Under the pieces are notes generated by a model that made no database searches, was not told the origin of the DNA, and was given only the letters and a program-made list of their open reading frames with translations. A stretch of DNA of 64,000 nt from IMG/VR virus record IMGVR_UViG_3300012007_000015, positions 16,927-80,926 of that record, one strand, 5' to 3'. Origin of the DNA: a virus (lineage: Duplodnaviria > Caudoviricetes). Numbering within the stretch: position 1 is the first letter of the stretch; the number at the start of each line of letters is the position of its first letter. Below, one piece after another: positions 5,907 to 64,000 of the stretch. The position numbers and the translations under genes are program-made.

Positions 5907-8723
5907 ATGGCAAAAAAGAGAAACGACATAGTATTGGCTCCGTTGGAGGATGGCAACCAAAAGCATGCCATTCGCTCCAACGCAGACATTGTCGCGTTCG
6001 TCGGGCAAACTGGTTCGGGGAAACAAAACCCCATTGATGAGCCTGTTTTAACGGTCAACGGATGGGTTAAAATGGGTGATTTGAAGATTGGTGATGAACT
6101 ATTCTCGCCGCTCAATACAGAACCGTCTTTTGTTACTGGTATTTATCCGCAGGGTGTCAAACCAGTATATAAAGTAACGACAAGCGACGGTCGTGTTTCT
6201 CGCTGCGGACTTGAGCATCTGTGGATGGTTCGTACAGAAAAGCAAGTGGAGAATTGGAGAAAAGGAAAAGGTTCTGCATACATTAAGACGACAAGAGAAA
6301 TATTAGACGAATATATTTCCAAGGGAAAGAATATATTCATCCCACTTGCGAGACCTTACGACGGAAAGGAGAAAGAACTTCCGATTGACCCTTATGTCCT
6401 TGGCGTTTGGCTTGGAGATGGTTGTTCACATCATGATTCTTTTGTGATTTCTGGAGACGAAATTGATGTTATAAAAAAAGTTTCAGACAAACTAAAAACA
6501 ACGTTTCGTTTTCATAGCAGCGAGAACTATAGCAACATGATACACCAGAACGAAAAAGTCTCTTCCGTCAAAAAATATATTAGAGAGTCTGGACTGGATG
6601 TGTACTCGCACGAAAGGTTTATCCCAGAAGAGTATCTGCACGCTTCTGTTGAGCAGCGTATGGAACTGTTGAAAGGATTGATGGATAGCGACGGAAATAT
6701 TGAAGAAAAGAACCGTTACTCTTTCTCTACGACAAGTCCTAAGTTGAAGCGATGTTTCATTGAACTTTGCAGAGGACTTGGTTATATCGTCGGAGAAAAT
6801 AAAGACAGCCGAACACGCTATAAGAGCGGAGAGTGTTGGAAGATAACAATCCAGACGAACGACATAATCTTCAGCAGCAAGAAGCACCTCGACAAATACC
6901 GCGCGAACTTGGAGAAATACAAGAACAAGAATCGTGAGTACAAGCATGACCATGTGCGCATTATAAATATAGAATATGTGGGAGACATGGAGTGTCAATG
7001 TATAATGGTTTCCAACAGAGACCACTTATACTGCACACATGACTATATTGTGACACATAACACAATTGCTTTATATTACGCCCCGATTGAGTACCTTGCC
7101 ATGAATGACAACGCCAAGGCTGTGTGCTTCATGCGTAACGTCGCGGACTTCTGGGCCACTGGTAAGGTCGCGGACACTGTTAAGCAGATGTATCCGCTCG
7201 TTGACAGAGGCGCAGGAAAGAAGCAGCCGCATGACCCGATAGGAGAAATCCGAAGAGGACAGGAGGACATGGGCGTCAAGTTCTACAACGGCTCCGAGAT
7301 TAAGTTCCAGCAGCTTGACAACGAGAGTCCTATCGTGATTGATAAGATTACGAAGGGTCTGCAGGCGAAGATACTTATTTTCGATGAGTGCAACAAGTTC
7401 CTCTGGAGAACCATATCGGCATTCTTCCCGCGCATGCGTTCCGATTCTTCTGGTAAGGCACAGGTGTTCCTTGCACAGAACCCAGAGCGCGAGTGCTTCA
7501 TGCGACAGATGTGTGGAAAGGGAGAGCACGGCGGAGGATGGATTAATGACGACGGCTCTATAGACAAGGATATGGACGGCGTAGTCATGTTCGTGTTCTT
7601 TCCAGACGGTGACTACGAAAGAGCAGTCTGGGGCCGAACTAAGAAAGAAGTATACGAGAAAGGCAAGGAGTGTATAGACAAGCTGCTCGCAATAGACCAA
7701 GATATGTCCTACGAGGACTTTATCCTGTCGTTCGCCTTCTTTACGTTCGATGTGAGAGACAACAAGAAGATGCTCTCAAAGAACAAGAAGTATCGCGGTC
7801 TTGCAGCTAACTCGACGACAGCAAAGTCTTCCTATGAGAACAACTGGAACTACTCTCTCGAAGACGAAAAGGGAGATGCCGAAGACCTCGCGAACGTACA
7901 GCTAAGTAATACGGACGTTGAGCGCATGTTCAGACATATAGAGATTCCCTACGAGAGCCAGTGCATCAAGAAGTTCATGACTGTAGACTATGCTACAACG
8001 GGATTCGATAACTTTGTAATGAAGTATTGGGAGCTGTGGGAGCACTACGGCTTTATCTGCAAGGATATTCAGTTTTCCATGAAGAACTCCAATAAGGAGG
8101 CCGTGATTATGATGATTGACTTCCGCGACCGTCATGGACTTCAGGAAAAGGAGATGATTATCGACGTGCAGGGCTCCACGTTCCTGCGCGACTGCTTCCC
8201 AAGAGCCATCAACTTTGCAGGTGCATCACAGCCTACGGAGCGCTCGAAGGCCCAGTACAAGACTCGCAAAGACGAGGCTGCACACCTCTGCATGGAGATG
8301 ATACAGGCTGGACTCATACACTACGACCCGAAGCTCGCAGATGCAAGGTACAATCACCAGAATATGAAGAGAGAGGGTGCGACCACCGTACTCCGCCACA
8401 TGAAGTTCGAGAGCGTCATCTTCCAGTTTGGAAAGACACCGAACGGGCGCATCACCATGCTCGACAAGGAGAAACAGAAAACCTTCCTCAAAGGTATGTC
8501 TCCAGACCTGTTCGACAATGTCATCATGCTTTGCGGAGGTCTGTATCACACGTGCTATAATATGCTGCGTGACGATGCAGGCATAATGCGCAAGAAGATG
8601 CAGGCGGAAGACATGCTCAGCCTCCTCAACGTAAACGGACGCGAAGAGGTTGACACGAGAATACACCGTGTTAGGAAGATTAGGAATGCAAGCGAAATAT
8701 TAAACGTTTTAAGTACGATATAA
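5907..8723 (+). CDS. terL: Terminase large subunit containing an intein
   Basis: Walker A GQTGSGK/T split by the intein, Walker B ILIFDE, RNase H-like nuclease motifs VDYATTGFD and SPDLFD. Confidence 0.9.
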   Translation: MAKKRNDIVLAPLEDGNQKHAIRSNADIVAFVGQTGSGKQNPIDEPVLTVNGWVKMGDLKIGDELFSPLNTEPSFVTGIYPQGVKPVYKVTTSDGRVSRCGLEHLWMVRTEKQVENWRKGKGSAYIKTTREILDEYISKGKNIFIPLARPYDGKEKELPIDPYVLGVWLGDGCSHHDSFVISGDEIDVIKKVSDKLKTTFRFHSSENYSNMIHQNEKVSSVKKYIRESGLDVYSHERFIPEEYLHASVEQRMELLKGLMDSDGNIEEKNRYSFSTTSPKLKRCFIELCRGLGYIVGENKDSRTRYKSGECWKITIQTNDIIFSSKKHLDKYRANLEKYKNKNREYKHDHVRIINIEYVGDMECQCIMVSNRDHLYCTHDYIVTHNTIALYYAPIEYLAMNDNAKAVCFMRNVADFWATGKVADTVKQMYPLVDRGAGKKQPHDPIGEIRRGQEDMGVKFYNGSEIKFQQLDNESPIVIDKITKGLQAKILIFDECNKFLWRTISAFFPRMRSDSSGKAQVFLAQNPERECFMRQMCGKGEHGGGWINDDGSIDKDMDGVVMFVFFPDGDYERAVWGRTKKEVYEKGKECIDKLLAIDQDMSYEDFILSFAFFTFDVRDNKKMLSKNKKYRGLAANSTTAKSSYENNWNYSLEDEKGDAEDLANVQLSNTDVERMFRHIEIPYESQCIKKFMTVDYATTGFDNFVMKYWELWEHYGFICKDIQFSMKNSNKEAVIMMIDFRDRHGLQEKEMIIDVQGSTFLRDCFPRAINFAGASQPTERSKAQYKTRKDEAAHLCMEMIQAGLIHYDPKLADARYNHQNMKREGATTVLRHMKFESVIFQFGKTPNGRITMLDKEKQKTFLKGMSPDLFDNVIMLCGGLYHTCYNMLRDDAGIMRKKMQAEDMLSLLNVNGREEVDTRIHRVRKIRNASEILNVLSTI
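6024..7061 (+). mobile_element. 346-aa class 3-type intein with LAGLIDADG homing endonuclease, in the TerL P-loop
   Basis: Block A QNPIDEPVLTVNGW, block B CGLEHLW, LAGLIDADG-like LGVWLGDG and LLKGLMDSDG, block F/G CQCIMV...HLY...IVTHN, and Thr+1. Confidence 0.9.
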
Positions 8724-43512: not shown

Positions 43513-45406
43513 TCACAACAAATTTAATTCGTTTAACTTTAATATAAGTTTGTAGCAAGCATCAACAAAATGCTCATGTCTATCAGTTTCTATACTTTCA
43601 TATATCCCGTAAGGGTCTGTATATGCAAGTTGGTACACATCATCCTCTTTGTCAATTTGCAAGTACGATGAATTACCATCGTCATCACACAACTCATAAG
43701 GAAGTTCTTCCAACAACGCTGCAAGACTCCAACAAGCGCAAAGTTCTTCTGGGTCTCCCTTAACAGGTATTGTTCTTGCAAAAGGTTTGCCTAAACCATT
43801 ACTAACCCAAGACATATCCGCACTTTCAAGCGGCAGTATCTCTGCTAACTTACGACTTTGTTCAATGGTTGTGTATGCTCTAATTGTTGCCATAGTTATT
43901 CTCCTTTGGTAGCTTGTCTAAAAGTTCGTCAACACTGATAGCGTGTCCTTTGTAGTATAAGACACCCTCTTGTATATAAGGCGTAGGACAGGAGACCATC
44001 GTTTTCTTAAATGTAGGAACGTCTTTAAGAGCATCAGAGTGCCCCTTGTCGTAGCCCCTGTTGTAGATTACCTCGTCTTTGTGTTTGAATGCTGTGTCCA
44101 GCTCTTCTGCAAACTGCTTGTACATATCCGTAAGCGCCATTCTATAGGCATCCTCTTCTATGGTAGTAACGCAGCCTCCGTTTTCTTTAAAACGATTTTT
44201 CCATAGCGTGACCATATTATTTATAAGACCCTCGTCCACCTTTGTAGCGTTGTACTTCGGTTGGAGTTCTTTGCGAGCGAGTTCAAGGAGTACAGCTGCC
44301 TCTTCCTTGGCGGCGTCATACATTTCCTCGTTAGACATTGTCTCTGGGTAGTAGTCTTTTATGCAGCAAAGAACAACTTCTTCAAACTCAGTCAGCTTTG
44401 GCTCTGGAGTGACGATAATAAGGTCGTCGTCATTGTGCATGTAGCAGTGGCCTTCCACTGTGTATCTCTTCGGGATGCCATAGTCCTCTATAAGAGCGAT
44501 AATAGGATACTTCGTGTTTGTTGCGGCATCCCAGCAGATGATTCTTGCTGAGCGTCCACTGTTCTTCTCTTGAACCTTATACTCTCCGCTCTCTATCTGC
44601 TGTCTCATGCTGATGTCAAATTGCTTTCTCATCTTCTATAATCTCTATGGTTATTTTTATTTTCTTTCTTCTGAGGTTGCTCAAGTCCATCTTTTGAGGA
44701 AGATTCCTATTCCATGGGAACACAACCTCTGACGGTGCTGAATACGGGTCTTGTCCGTGCCACTCTGCTCTTAATGTAAGTCCTACGGATGAGTCGAACT
44801 CCATGCCGCAAAGTCGTCCTGTTGTTTCTGATACTACCATAATTATTCTACGTTACTTCTATATCTTGTAAGCCAAATAGTTGAAGATACTGATGGTTGC
44901 CCAGAACGTAGCGTGATGTATGTCTCCGAAAAAGAAACACCCGAAACCTGCTATCATACTGAGAAAACACGCGATGGCATTTAACGCCCGTCTGTGGAAC
45001 CTTGGTAAAAGAAATCTGATTTTCATAATTGTAGATGGTTTTAATTTTGTGCAAAGATAACTATTTAGTTTGAATATTCAAAGTGTTTTAATAAAGTTTA
45101 AGTTAAAGATTGTATAAGCTTGTTAAGCTCCTCTCTTCTTGCAAACGTAAGATACGCCCTTTGTCTGAAGATATTGACAAGTCTCTCCTTGTCGCTGATA
45201 ATATTAACGTGGTCGTGGTAGAATTTCCTCACAAACCTCTTCGTGTCCTCAATAGTGCTCTTAAGCTCCACCTTACGGCCATCGTTGGTATCGAATATAA
45301 TACGCCATACGATGTCGTCGGAAGTTATTATTGTCGCGCTCTTTACTCCGTACTTCTCGTGGAACTCGATTAATGAGTCAGGTAGCCTACTTGTTTCCAT
45401 AGTCAT
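43513..45406 (-). CDS. Hypothetical proteins (43513-43893, 43880-44632, 44616-44840, 44859-45026 membrane peptide, 45098-45406)
   Basis: Coupled ORFs. 44859-45026 (MKIRFLLPRF...) is preferred over the track's 44848-45054 frame. Confidence 0.6.
45052..45082 (-). promoter_or_regulatory. Bacteroidota sigma-A promoter
   Basis: TTTG-N19-TATCTTTG. Confidence 0.8.
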
Positions 45407-46349
45407 TACAATTATTATTGGATAGGAGTGAAAGGCACCTTACCTTGCGGCGTCTTATGTGTTCCACATCTGTGTTGAAGCCGAGTTTCATATTATCAAG
45501 CATATCCTCTATTTCGTGCAGCGATTTTATTCCCATGTTGCGCATCTTCAGAAGGCTCAATCTGTCTAACTGCACCAAGTCTTCGAGCGTGCGCACTCCT
45601 GCAGCATTTATACTGTTAAGAGAGCGTACAGACAGGTCGATGTCTGCGATTGGAGTCTTCAACAGGTTAAGTATCCTGTCGCATTCATCGGCCTCTCGCT
45701 GAAGTATGGCTTTCTCGTCGGCACCTCCTTGAAGCTCTGGGTGAAGTTCTCTTGTCAGTCTGGCAACCTCGGACTTCAAGCTCTCGTTATCCCTCTTGAC
45801 GCTATCAAGCTCGCTGACTGTATCCTCGAACTTGTTCATGCGAATCAGCAGGCCAACGACCTCTGACGCTTTCTTGCAGCCCCTGCCGAATATCTGAAAA
45901 ATGCGAGAGCTGGTAAGGAAGTATTTATCTGCGATGTCACGTATGTCGGTGCCGTCTATCACGTCGAGCATAATCTGCATCTCCCTGTAGTTTATTACAT
46001 TGAGGTTGTGCAGCATAGCAGGTATCGTCTTGTAGAAGTTCTTCTGGCTGACACTTGCCCCGATTTTTCTGACAATAAATAACTCCCTGTTGACATCGTG
46101 CAGAATCTTCTGCTCTTCTTCAAGGAGAGAGGATATTTCCTTGCGAACACTCTCCAGTTTGGTCTTGGCTTGCTCTACATCCGCAGCAGTATCAGAAATT
46201 GCGTTGATGGTATCCAAGTCTACCCAGTGTGCGTTCTCCGTACTTCCTGCCTTATGAATCTTGATGATTCCAGACCTACCCCAGTTCTCAAGCGTCTGTC
46301 TGGTGATGCCGAGCATTTCTGCTGCCTCTTTTACTCTGATTTTCTTCAT
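45387..46349 (-). CDS. Regulator: MerR-like HTH, sigma4-like HTH, coiled coil and RNA polymerase alpha C-terminal domain
   Basis: VKEAAEMLGITRQTLENW; DIADKYFLTSSRIFQI; PIADIDLSVRSLNSINAAGVRTLEDLV...RNMGIKSLHEI. Confidence 0.82.
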   Translation of the reverse strand: MKKIRVKEAAEMLGITRQTLENWGRSGIIKIHKAGSTENAHWVDLDTINAISDTAADVEQAKTKLESVRKEISSLLEEEQKILHDVNRELFIVRKIGASVSQKNFYKTIPAMLHNLNVINYREMQIMLDVIDGTDIRDIADKYFLTSSRIFQIFGRGCKKASEVVGLLIRMNKFEDTVSELDSVKRDNESLKSEVARLTRELHPELQGGADEKAILQREADECDRILNLLKTPIADIDLSVRSLNSINAAGVRTLEDLVQLDRLSLLKMRNMGIKSLHEIEDMLDNMKLGFNTDVEHIRRRKVRCLSLLSNNNCNDYGNK

Positions 46350-62196: not shown

Positions 62197-62634
62197 GCTT
62201 TTAATGTTTTAGAGTTGATACTTATGTTTAGAAAATGTTCCTGCTTTTGCAAACACAGGTCAGCCTACTCCCTGCAAAACGCTTTGTTGTAATGGAGTTG
62301 CCGATATTGCCTGCTTTTTCCTTTGATGCGCTGTTCTTTGCTTTTTTCGCACACCGCGCACCTTTGCAGGCTGCAAACAGACCTTCTGCTCCCATGCTTT
62401 CAATCTGCTCCATGCAATAAGCGTAGTTACTTAGTCGCTGACGATGTGGTCGGGAGTGCTGATAGTGAACGGCACCCTTCTTTGGTGCAAGTGCGCACAA
62501 TTCGGGGCAAAGTTGTCCTAATGTTGCCATAGTTTTTCCATGTTTTAAAGTTGATACCGACACCCTACAATACTTTGCAGGGTGTCTCGTCGCAATTTTC
62601 AGCGTACTCGTCAGGGTATCTCTAAATCGTAGAT

Positions 62635-63246
62635 TTATGCAGCCTTCTTGTTTGTCTTCATCCACTTTCCATCCTTACGGATGACCTTTGTCCATTCGGG
62701 CTTCTGAGAAGTTCCGCAGTTGATATAACCTTCGGTTATTGCCTCTGCTTTGGCTGCTGCTTTGGCTACCTTAGTAGCCCAAGTATCAGATAGAGCACAC
62801 TGAACCAAGCCATCCACTACTACGTCAGTAGTAGGAGCGATGTGCTTTTTCTTGTCGAATTGGCTATCTGTCTCCGAAAGAATTGTGCGTTTTTCGTAAA
62901 CTGAAACTCGGCTATAGTCGCCACTCTCCTTGAGAGTGTAGAGGGTGTAGTCCTTGCCACCTACCTCTACGAGGTAGCCAACCGACTTCCACATCTGAAG
63001 GTCTCCGCTTTCGGTCTTTAGACCGCCCCACCAAGCAGTAAAGATATGGGAGGCATTTAGCTTTGCTAAAGAGGGAACAAACACGTGGAGGGTCTGCATA
63101 GCAGAAAGCATAGCTTTCCCCTGCTTGGTGTTGGCAGGCTCTTGGAAAGACCTTGCAACGGCGTTAAAAGTGTGGGTACTCTGCTTTGCAGTCTTTGCAG
63201 CGTTGCGAACTTGGCTCTTGTTGTTGTTATTCTTGCGTGTTGTCAT
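62635..63246 (-). CDS. Hypothetical protein, first gene after the structured leader
   Basis: 203 aa basic ORF, MTTRKNNNNK... Confidence 0.7.
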   Translation of the reverse strand: MTTRKNNNNKSQVRNAAKTAKQSTHTFNAVARSFQEPANTKQGKAMLSAMQTLHVFVPSLAKLNASHIFTAWWGGLKTESGDLQMWKSVGYLVEVGGKDYTLYTLKESGDYSRVSVYEKRTILSETDSQFDKKKHIAPTTDVVVDGLVQCALSDTWATKVAKAAAKAEAITEGYINCGTSQKPEWTKVIRKDGKWMKTNKKAA

Positions 63247-63890
63247 AAAATGCGGCTTGACCGTGGTGCCGTAGGGCTGAAAGATTGATACTTAAAAAAC
63301 TTGTTTTTTGGCGACCATGTCGGGTGCCGACCCCGAAGATTACGTAACCCTGTAGAGTTACGACCTAATGCCGTAGGCATGGTCTTTTGGCCTGCAATCT
63401 GCTTTGCGTACTCCGCCACCCAATACATTGCCGCGATGTTCAAAGCTTATGCTTTGCCTGCCGCTGGTTCAACACCACCTTCCACGTCGGCGAAAATATC
63501 TCACTTTAGTGAGGCTTGCTTTCGGTTGTCTCACGACAACCCTGTAAGACCAACCACTGCTATGCTCTTTTGGAGGTACTTTCGGGGCGTTTCCCTAAGT
63601 AGGGAAATAGAGCTTTTGGCTACTTCTGCACCCCAAAAGCAATTAGATAAATCTAATTGGCTCGTAGTGCTGCCTAACGGCTTGTGTTTCTTCGTCACCC
63701 TAAAGGGTGTCACTCACGTTGCGGTTCGTCCTTGTCGGCTACGCTTATCTTTCCTGCCCTTCCCAAGTGGGAAGGGTGTAGGTCTGGAATACTCACTTCT
63801 ACAATTGTAGAAGTTTTCCTCGAACTACCAGAGCTTCACGTAGGAGTGAAAAACTAAATCAAAAACAAAATCACTTCCGCCGAAATGACT
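63247..63890 (-). ncRNA. Candidate large structured ncRNA / 5' leader (~640 nt)
   Basis: At least 13 hairpins, GUGA (GNRA) and cUACGg (UNCG) tetraloops on the minus strand, directly downstream of a promoter, no convincing ORF. Confidence 0.55.
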
Positions 63891-63894
63891 GATG

Positions 63895-63925
63895 CAAAGA
63901 TAATACGAGAAACTGCAAAGTCAAG
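63895..63925 (-). promoter_or_regulatory. Bacteroidota sigma-A promoter heading the early region
   Basis: CTTG-N19-TATCTTTG. Confidence 0.75.
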
Positions 63926-64000
63926 TGCTATTTAACAGTTAATTTTTTATTACAAAGTTATAATATACAAGTATATTATATATATAGCTTTTTGTGTTAA

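Follow-up and report, generated by a model that had tools for sequence, protein, structure and literature searches.

A conserved hairpin array over the leader and first gene of a predicted early transcription unit in a tailed phage and its relatives

In transcripts of phages and prophages, hammerhead ribozymes have been found on the flanks of single genes or of short gene blocks, and the early anti-restriction gene ardA is reported to be one gene so flanked (Perreault et al. 2011, PMC3088659). Here we describe a locus in which a hammerhead-like motif closes a unit of ~1.35 kb that is packed with short hairpins. The DNA analysed, referred to as the window, is a stretch of 64,000 nucleotides from a virus (Duplodnaviria; Caudoviricetes), corresponding to bases 16927-80926 of the IMG/VR record IMGVR_UViG_3300012007_000015, an 80,926-bp linear virus record rated complete. 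On its minus strand a predicted promoter (63895-63924), a 5' leader of ~640 nt (63247-63890), a gene encoding a basic protein of 203 aa (gene 1, 62635-63246) and a type I hammerhead-ribozyme-like motif directly after the gene-1 stop codon (62553-62620) form one unit, and both leader and coding sequence (CDS) carry the hairpins. We consider it fairly probable that these are separate hairpins arrayed along the first early mRNA and acting at the RNA level, as armour of the message and/or as a multivalent binding platform; transcription, cleavage and the role of the hairpins are what we infer from the sequence. The described phage hammerheads (PMC3088659; RF03152) resemble the locus in having a type I motif with an extra 5' hairpin at a gene boundary of a phage early operon and three covarying stems. 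Unlike them, the motif occurs here in one copy per genome and always after the first gene, its scores lie below the Rfam threshold, the core of the window copy is substituted, and it follows an upstream hairpin array of a kind not described in PMC3088659. Ribozyme-bounded phage genes and structured early leaders are already known, and we found no description of a conserved array of ~25 hairpins over leader and CDS, of a shared C-UUUA-G loop or of a single hammerhead after the first early gene; searches of the literature on Bacteroidetes or rumen phages yielded nothing pertinent on hairpin arrays or on structured leaders of early messages.

Sponge RNAs such as CsrB and RsmZ also present many hairpins with one short loop motif, which in the leaders described here is C-UUUA-G (28 occurrences versus 1.1 expected); unlike in those RNAs, however, the motif is not GGA, the RNA of ~1.3 kb is phage-borne and encodes a protein, and the partner that it would titrate is hypothetical. 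The promoter type points to Bacteroidota as the probable host of the window phage, a phylum in which we know of no CsrA. The packaging stem-loops of MS2 and satellite tobacco necrosis virus are likewise scattered through RNA that is partly coding and partly not, and they too carry one loop motif on stems that vary; the single-stranded RNA viruses also share with the locus an RNA that encodes a protein of ~200 aa with a basic N-terminal arm; by contrast, the present element belongs to a double-stranded DNA phage, the gene-1 model has no recognisable coat fold and the match to a Cucumovirus coat family is sub-threshold. The ROOL and GOLLD RNAs (Rfam) are also long, highly folded, phage-borne and from rumen or gut, and the leader is non-coding like them, whereas the locus has no covariance-model match, low sequence conservation and modular local hairpins, and is contiguous with a coding gene that shares the structure. 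Stabilisers such as the ompA leader and REP elements likewise consist of local hairpins, which at the start of an mRNA or along its length can bar RNases of the end-dependent and scanning types; in contrast to these, the array comprises ~27 regularly spaced hairpins, also inside the CDS, and a conserved loop motif.

Obelisks are RNA-only circular genomes of ~1 kb with a rod-like fold that encode Oblin-1, a protein with a GYxDxG domain-A. Kinship with Obelisks and Oblin-1 was considered and rejected, the element being found in DNA phage contigs of 80-113 kb with local hairpins and a mixed alpha/beta gene-1 model, and sharing only a GYxNxG string; Oblin-1 has been described as a largely helical globule (10.1101/2024.01.20.576352).

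The leader contains 15 perfect hairpins with stems of 5-9 bp and loops of 3-7 nt. Read on the minus strand from the predicted transcript start, perfect hairpins lie at 63871-63888 (with two G.U pairs), 63835-63850, 63795-63814 (a perfect 20-nt palindrome), 63757-63776, 63696-63709, 63640-63659, 63612-63640, 63590-63607, 63524-63541 (GUGA loop), 63500-63513, 63441-63456, 63368-63380, 63343-63362, 63319-63331 and 63294-63309 (A6-CAAG-U6). In 300 dinucleotide shuffles, the null used for the hairpin counts, only 2.7 +/- 1.7 such hairpins (stem of at least 5 bp) were obtained; stems of at least 7 bp numbered five against 0.19, and the minimum free energy (MFE) z-score of the leader is -4.5. A sequence-only reading, which had described 63247-63890 as a hairpin-packed stretch, is thereby borne out. 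All the stems that it listed are present in the sequence, all but one as given, and the hairpin at 63441-63456 was missing from its list; at 63362-63384 a hairpin does exist, ATGCC-TAC-GGCAT at 63368-63380, but it carries a TAC triloop and not the cUACGg loop that had been proposed. The loop recurrence that it reported is also found, ACUU and UUUA occurring twice each and UAAA once, with GUGA and AAUU among the other loops. No tandem or direct repeats were found in the leader, the short rows reported lying upstream of the block or at the 5' end of gene 1. Rfam models run over the whole window at the gathering threshold gave a single tRNA and nothing in the leader, and scans at permissive E-values of 62500-64000 and of five relatives' loci gave nothing relevant, in line with the earlier description of the stretch as a candidate novel RNA. 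The same holds for its description as non-coding: no open reading frame (ORF) in the leader is conserved across lineages, the open frames shifting in frame and strand. Within the leader, conservation of primary sequence across all lineages, L031 included (relatives are given by L numbers), is confined to the translation-initiation region of 33 nt just before the ATG (63247-63279, CAGCCCTACGGCAYCACGGTYAAGCCGCATTTT), and leader identity is 80-86% over the last 50-90 nt versus 40-55% elsewhere. A 169-aa antisense open frame running through the leader (63301-63810, plus strand) has no Pfam match and no counterpart in relatives, the gene callers called nothing at the equivalent position in most loci, and it is probably spurious.

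The hairpins do not stop at the start codon. Gene 1 carries 11 perfect hairpins versus 2.6 expected, for example at 62670-62683, 62725-62739, 62764-62779, 62817-62834, 62922-62938, 62961-62977, 63012-63025, 63056-63070 and 63104-63118 (all minus strand), and the array ends at ~62620; the next 1270 nt hold seven against 5.4 expected, that is, background, and density remains at background from gene 2 onward. The whole block of leader and gene 1 has 27 hairpins versus 5.5 +/- 2.5 in shuffles, contains all three of the densest 500-nt hairpin bins of the window's own genome and has a GC content of 45-52%. A short hairpin recurs about every 43 nt across the ~1.35-kb unit, a pattern found hardly anywhere else in the 81-kb genome, and most unpaired runs of the leaders stay below 50 nt (median 25 nt, 90th percentile 48 nt). 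The boundaries 63247-63890 drawn by the sequence-only reading are therefore too narrow, since the hairpin density goes on through gene 1 to ~62620, and the stretch that it took for a free-standing non-coding RNA (ncRNA) is the 5' leader of the first early gene, leader and CDS being one structural unit. Gene 1 is truly coding, because pairwise differences among 11 homologues are distributed 0.29/0.26/0.54 over the three codon positions and because a family of homologues exists, of which 13 members are close and 32 representative clusters are more distant.

To follow the array beyond the window, we compared the locus from ~30 contigs of rumen and gut metagenomes, representing at least eight lineages. 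Scanning viral contigs with the single gene-1 protein gave none, while alignment-based scans gave 5 and 8 loci; a query with the leader DNA against phage records had no match. Identity between lineages is 40-55% in the leaders and 50-77% in the gene-1 proteins. When perfect hairpins with stems of at least 6 bp were counted over loci of 6.6 kb, the block extended in eight lineages from about -700 to about +700 around the ATG (from -1000 in L005), the rest of the loci having ~0-1 hairpins per 200 nt. A distant homologue of gene 1 (L035, locus 500-1745; profile E 2.6e-22) is preceded by a leader of ~520 nt full of C-TTTA-G hairpins and has eight hairpins in its ORF. The array is widespread, not universal, in the gene-1 family. 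Among the matches listed by a spaced-pattern hunt for C-TTTA-G arrays in unrelated phages, the best hairpin-rich candidates, L067 and L143, were rejected as they consist of collagen-like GGTCC coding repeats.

Pairing itself is under selection in both the leader and the ORF. The ORFs of the family have 11-16 hairpins each versus 1.3-1.9 in shuffles, at the same columns of the codon alignment in 10 of the 11 sequences. For 64 pairs in 12 ORF helices, with partners slid by 1-3 columns and 500 shuffles as nulls, 79% of the cells are paired versus 33-41% with slid partners, 24 pairs are changed on both sides versus 7-12, and the covariation score is 0.249 versus 0.06-0.09, a value matched by none of the 500 shuffles. 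At a site encoding PTTDVV both arms are synonymous, reading CTACTAC-TGAC-GTAGTAG, CTACCAC-TGAC-GTGGTAG or CAACTAC-GGAT-GTAGTTG according to lineage; at another site both arms alter the amino acids (GACTGC-AAA-GCAGTC, CAAGAACGT-AAA-ACGTTCTTG and AACACTC-TTAA-GAGTGTT), so that the ORF hairpins are kept even at the cost of amino-acid changes. Stems differ from hairpin to hairpin and from lineage to lineage. In the leaders, RNAalifold applied to 17 sequences of the L006/L012/L018 group gave 160 pairs, 27 of them with double changes; these compensatory changes in the relatives show that the stems are under selection, a point in favour of the sequence-only reading.

The 5' border of the block coincides with a predicted promoter. 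A sigma-70-like TTGACT-16-TATCTT (63924-63897, minus strand) overlaps a Bacteroidetes-type -7 box, TATCTTTG (63902-63895), which is followed by CATCAG; the transcript would start near 63890, and the first hairpin begins 2-3 nt past this predicted site. The same succession, TAnnTTTG and then CATCAG, stands at the boundary between AT-rich and hairpin sequence in the window, in L003 and in L031, and in most other lineages TAnnTTTG boxes lie at or upstream of this boundary. Promoters of the Bacteroidetes housekeeping sigma factor have a -33 TTTG and a -7 TAnnTTTG with a spacing of ~19-21 nt; upstream of the -7 box, the window has TTTG at 13 nt and TTG at 19 nt, and L005 has TTTG at 21 nt. The "consensus promoter" of the sequence-only reading (63895-63925) was overstated, its sigma-70 match being only 9/12, though the Bacteroidetes-type -7 box is present, and the position that it gave to the stretch, directly downstream of a promoter, agrees with the conserved box at the 5' edge.

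At the 3' border, a hairpin TAAATC-TAC-GATTTA (62623-62637, minus strand) overlaps the gene-1 stop codon and is the counterpart of the additional 5' hairpin that RAGATH-1 hammerheads possess. It is followed by the motif proper, which in the window has GAUACC/GGUAUC as stem I, then CUGACGA, a stem II capped by a UGAAAAUU loop, GAGA, a stem III of 11 bp and finally GUC (~62559-62561), after which cleavage is predicted. Relatives show stem I, CUGANGA, stem II with the conserved UGAAAAUU loop, GAAA, a stem III of 10-15 bp and GUC (L003 3634-3703, L005 3799-3873, L006 3689-3758 and L030 1150-1210), and the consensus core CUGANGA ... GAAA ... NUH is present in L003, L005, L006, L011, L012, L030 and L031. 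Stem I covaries (GAUACC/GGUAUC, GACACC/GGUGUU, UCCCA/UGGGA), as does stem II (CGC/GCG, CGU/ACG), the sequence of stem III is different in every lineage, and in all lineages a hairpin overlaps the stop codon. The L006 copy aligns to the full RF03152 model (RAGATH-1-hammerhead), the 5' hairpin of the model falling on the equivalent stop-codon hairpin, with 29.2 bits and a local E-value of 0.0048, and does not reach the curated threshold of 56.3. Each locus has one motif, always right after gene 1, and there is none elsewhere in the 81-kb genome. In L019 (3703-3771) and L023 (~30-100 nt past the gene-1 stop at 1162) the slot of the hammerhead is occupied by a tRNA-like element with a GGTTCGAWTCC T-arm; its identification as a tRNA was rejected, ARAGORN finding none and Rfam only weak tRNA-Sec and mascRNA-like matches (17.9 and 14.7 bits).

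Two lines of sequence evidence point to the sense RNA, and the first is these borders: a promoter box on the 5' side and a hammerhead-like motif on the 3' side are not expected of a DNA-level element, which argues for a reading at the RNA level. The second is a strand bias of the loops. On the message strand CTTTAG occurs 28 times in the leaders versus 1.1 expected and 8 for its complement, in seven of the eight leaders; TTTA forms 31 of 60 tetraloops in leaders versus 6 for TAAA, and GNRA loops number 11 versus 2 for their complement. We propose that transcription would start from the host (Bacteroidetes-type) promoter and that the hairpins would act in the sense mRNA like beads on a string. 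As armour, they would keep long single-stranded stretches scarce, so that Rho loading, endoribonucleases or RNA-guided defences would find little purchase on a message expected to be long, largely untranslated and made first. As a platform, the leader would display many C-UUUA-G tetraloops for multivalent binding of a protein, the candidates being an RNA-binding factor of the host and the basic product of gene 1 itself, and the two roles would not exclude one another. The ribozyme or tRNA-like element at the 3' end would free an RNA of ~1.3 kb from the rest of the 39-kb early transcript, and such a release is easier to reconcile with a sponge, with a scaffold or with a message stabilised on its own than with an antiterminator that stays tethered. 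The repeated C-UUUA-G loop gives some support to the sponge or scaffold idea. In its most specific form the proposal is speculative and rather unlikely: the first phage product would be a ribozyme-released, dual-function RNA of ~1.3 kb whose ~25 hairpins, many of them capped by C-UUUA-G, offer a multivalent decoy or scaffold to an RNA-binding or defence protein of the Bacteroidota host; the encoded basic protein may join, and the hairpins would matter enough to prevail over the choice of amino acids in the gene.

Several observations weigh against an action in the sense RNA or against parts of the mechanism. Structure alone is indifferent to strand: the plus-strand RNA folds as well as the minus-strand RNA (z -4.4 versus -4.5), the mismatches that terminate stems are G.U in 40 and A.C in 46 cases, conserved ORF pairs include 49 of each, and the alifold energies are -341 for sense and -346 for antisense. 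The sequence-only reading had taken G.U pairs as favouring the minus strand and thus RNA, an argument that falls with these equal counts and energies. With 2319 Watson-Crick, 9 G.U and 3 A.C pairs, the stems are almost purely Watson-Crick and would suit single-stranded DNA equally well. In the window's own leader, the loop motif is weak, with only two UUUA loops and one UAAA loop. Changes of GAAA to GAGA (A14G) and of CUGA to CCGA (U4C) cripple minimal hammerheads; the window copy has the former and so departs from the consensus core, L004 and L017 have the latter (CCGAUGA), and the predicted cleavage may not occur in every lineage. The window's own copy also gave no Rfam match at E <=10. Furthermore, L031 and L034 (L034 profile E 1.9e-30) carry gene 1 with few hairpins, and the array is thus dispensable for the gene-1 protein. 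Finally, armour against Rho or RNases alone does not account for a protection of the first gene only.

The indifference to strand is what an explanation at the DNA level builds on, in which the inverted repeats would function in single-stranded or supercoiled DNA as a replication origin, a priming zone or a signal for DNA entry or packaging. It fits the almost exclusively Watson-Crick stems and the wobble counts and energies that are blind to strand, and it could draw on the triloops such as GAA and GTA that are frequent in the ORF part, these being stable in DNA hairpins, on the adjoining AT-rich gene-free zone of 0.5-1.5 kb and on the position of the block 100-750 nt from the end of the window's record. 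However, all stems differ in sequence, hence there are no iterons or common protein-binding sites, and cruciform extrusion would need longer arms than the 5-9 bp present; the borders match a promoter box and a ribozyme-like motif or stop codon and no DNA landmark; the loop motifs are strand-biased, 31 to 6; and in L017 and L022, of similar size, the locus lies mid-contig. Neither the iterons nor the AT-rich unwinding element of a replication origin lie inside the feature, the stems all being different, the block having 45-52% GC and the AT-rich zone lying upstream of the promoter. Taken together, we regard a DNA-level element as improbable.

The leader was proposed in the sequence-only reading to be a free-standing, ornate large ncRNA, which in the manner of ROOL and GOLLD would have a conserved tertiary fold. 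The length of the non-coding stretch, its lack of a match in Rfam and the MFE z-score of -4.5 are compatible with such an RNA, as are some nested multi-helix domains that covary: in the L006/L018 group a 9-bp leader helix around two hairpins has five covarying pairs (alignment A2, columns 673-681 with 745-753), and in the window leader an equivalent outer helix, GACCAUG/CAUGGUC, encloses three hairpins. Yet the leaders of different lineages are only 40-55% identical, too divergent to align, and have no conserved junction or loop nucleotides save the CUUUAG apices and the ATG-proximal region, the feature runs on through a protein-coding gene, and no terminator or processing site separates leader and gene. 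Moreover, whole leader hairpins are exchanged at fixed positions, e.g. CTAAAGTTC-TTGTG-GAACTTTAG and CCCTCCCC-GTA-GGGGAG, or cleanly inserted or deleted between relatives, so hairpins are gained, lost and replaced. With hairpins behaving as cassettes and few long-range helices seen, the likeness to ROOL and GOLLD that had been put forward is not upheld, the leader is mostly a string of independent hairpins with few nested domains, and a free-standing ornate ncRNA appears quite improbable.

We judge equally low the chance that the array is a mutational by-product with little or no function, arising by quasi-palindrome correction through intrastrand template switching, which would repeatedly turn imperfect repeats into perfect ones in DNA that is frequently single-stranded while being replicated or transcribed. 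Template switching yields concerted changes of both arms in one step, and it would suit stems that are perfect with hardly any G.U pairs or mismatches, arms that change together even where amino acids alter, and whole hairpins that come and go. Such a mutational bias accounts for the origin of the compensation but not for the retention of the hairpins, which have stayed at the same 11 codon positions in lineages whose proteins are 50-77% identical; in addition, the block is confined sharply to one transcription unit in every lineage, and the loop motif is non-random and strand-biased.

A processive antitermination RNA (put- or nut-like) that lets host RNA polymerase read the 39-kb early operon, as the sequence-only reading had also considered, would agree with the promoter-proximal position at the head of a ~39-kb block of co-oriented genes and with the basic N-terminal arm of gene 1, comparable to that of lambda N, but it is a poor fit and the least probable of these explanations. 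Known RNA antiterminators work with one or two hairpins of a specific kind, where the locus has ~25 variable ones, and do so while tethered to the polymerase; directly past gene 1, a self-cleaving or tRNA-like element would break this tether by cutting the RNA off the operon transcript. Moreover, no boxA-like conserved element was seen in the leaders.

None of these rivals explains the borders, the strand-biased loops and the long-term retention of hairpins at fixed coding positions as well as an array acting in the sense RNA. A gene with 11 hairpins at fixed positions and a 640-nt leader built alike is an unusually clear case of selection on RNA (or single-strand) structure over a whole message. 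If the array is armour, phages of Bacteroidota would face a pressure peculiar to the earliest minutes of infection, for instance from Rho, from RNases or from an RNA-guided defence; should it be a binding platform, the C-UUUA-G loop would define a new RNA-protein recognition pair in a phylum that, to our knowledge, is without the classical regulators Hfq, ProQ and CsrA. The unit also offers a concrete case in which to ask why phages put a single ribozyme after one particular gene.

The gene-1 proteins are uniformly basic across homologues (pI 9.6-10.1; 9.7 in the window). For this family, Pfam gave only the sub-threshold match to Cucumovirus coat (E 0.008), PHROGs no usable match, and no RNA-binding family or fold was matched by the gene-1 protein. 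Its AlphaFold model, mixed alpha/beta, had no usable match in the PDB or BFVD by Foldseek, a wide VIA-align comparison reached a best Z of 4.2 with helical fragments only, and the ESM Atlas held nothing usable.

The window phage is tailed, with a large terminase, an SPP1-type portal, RecT, a sliding clamp and homing endonucleases. The hairpin leader stands at the head of a ~39-kb block of co-oriented minus-strand genes that runs from 63246 down to ~24573, and the first gene past the ribozyme-like motif is gene 2 (62228-62530, minus strand; MATLGQLCPEL...), which has the same start in L017. Upstream of the hairpin block, relatives show 0.5-1.5 kb of sequence that lacks genes and has 10-30% GC, beyond which the genes diverge; this AT-rich zone between divergent gene blocks comprises 63926-64000 of the window together with 1-530 of the record start, and 700-2330 in L004, where it holds many short direct repeats (ctactat, tactac). 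It may contain an origin and divergent promoters. The right end of the record lies 100-750 nt from the leader. A second assembly, L152 (81,605 bp), is otherwise identical and continues for 676 nt past the end of the window's record (L152 1-676) in AT-rich sequence with an N gap inside and no join to the start of the record. The record end is probably no fixed genome terminus, because the locus is found mid-contig in relatives of similar size, at 40.7-47.4 kb of 80.9 kb in L017 and at 35-41.7 kb of 82.4 kb in L022.

Elsewhere in the window, a scan of the 21 larger ORFs showed no phage RNA polymerase. A protein of 320 aa (45387-46349, minus strand) combines an N-terminal helix-turn-helix with an RNA polymerase alpha C-terminal domain (Pfam PF03118, E 7.5e-17), through which the phage probably redirects the host RNA polymerase. 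In the large terminase (938 aa, 5907-8723, plus strand), the N-terminal 280 residues also score with PHROG families of DNA primase and DnaC-like loaders, probably as a result of shared P-loop ATPase similarity.

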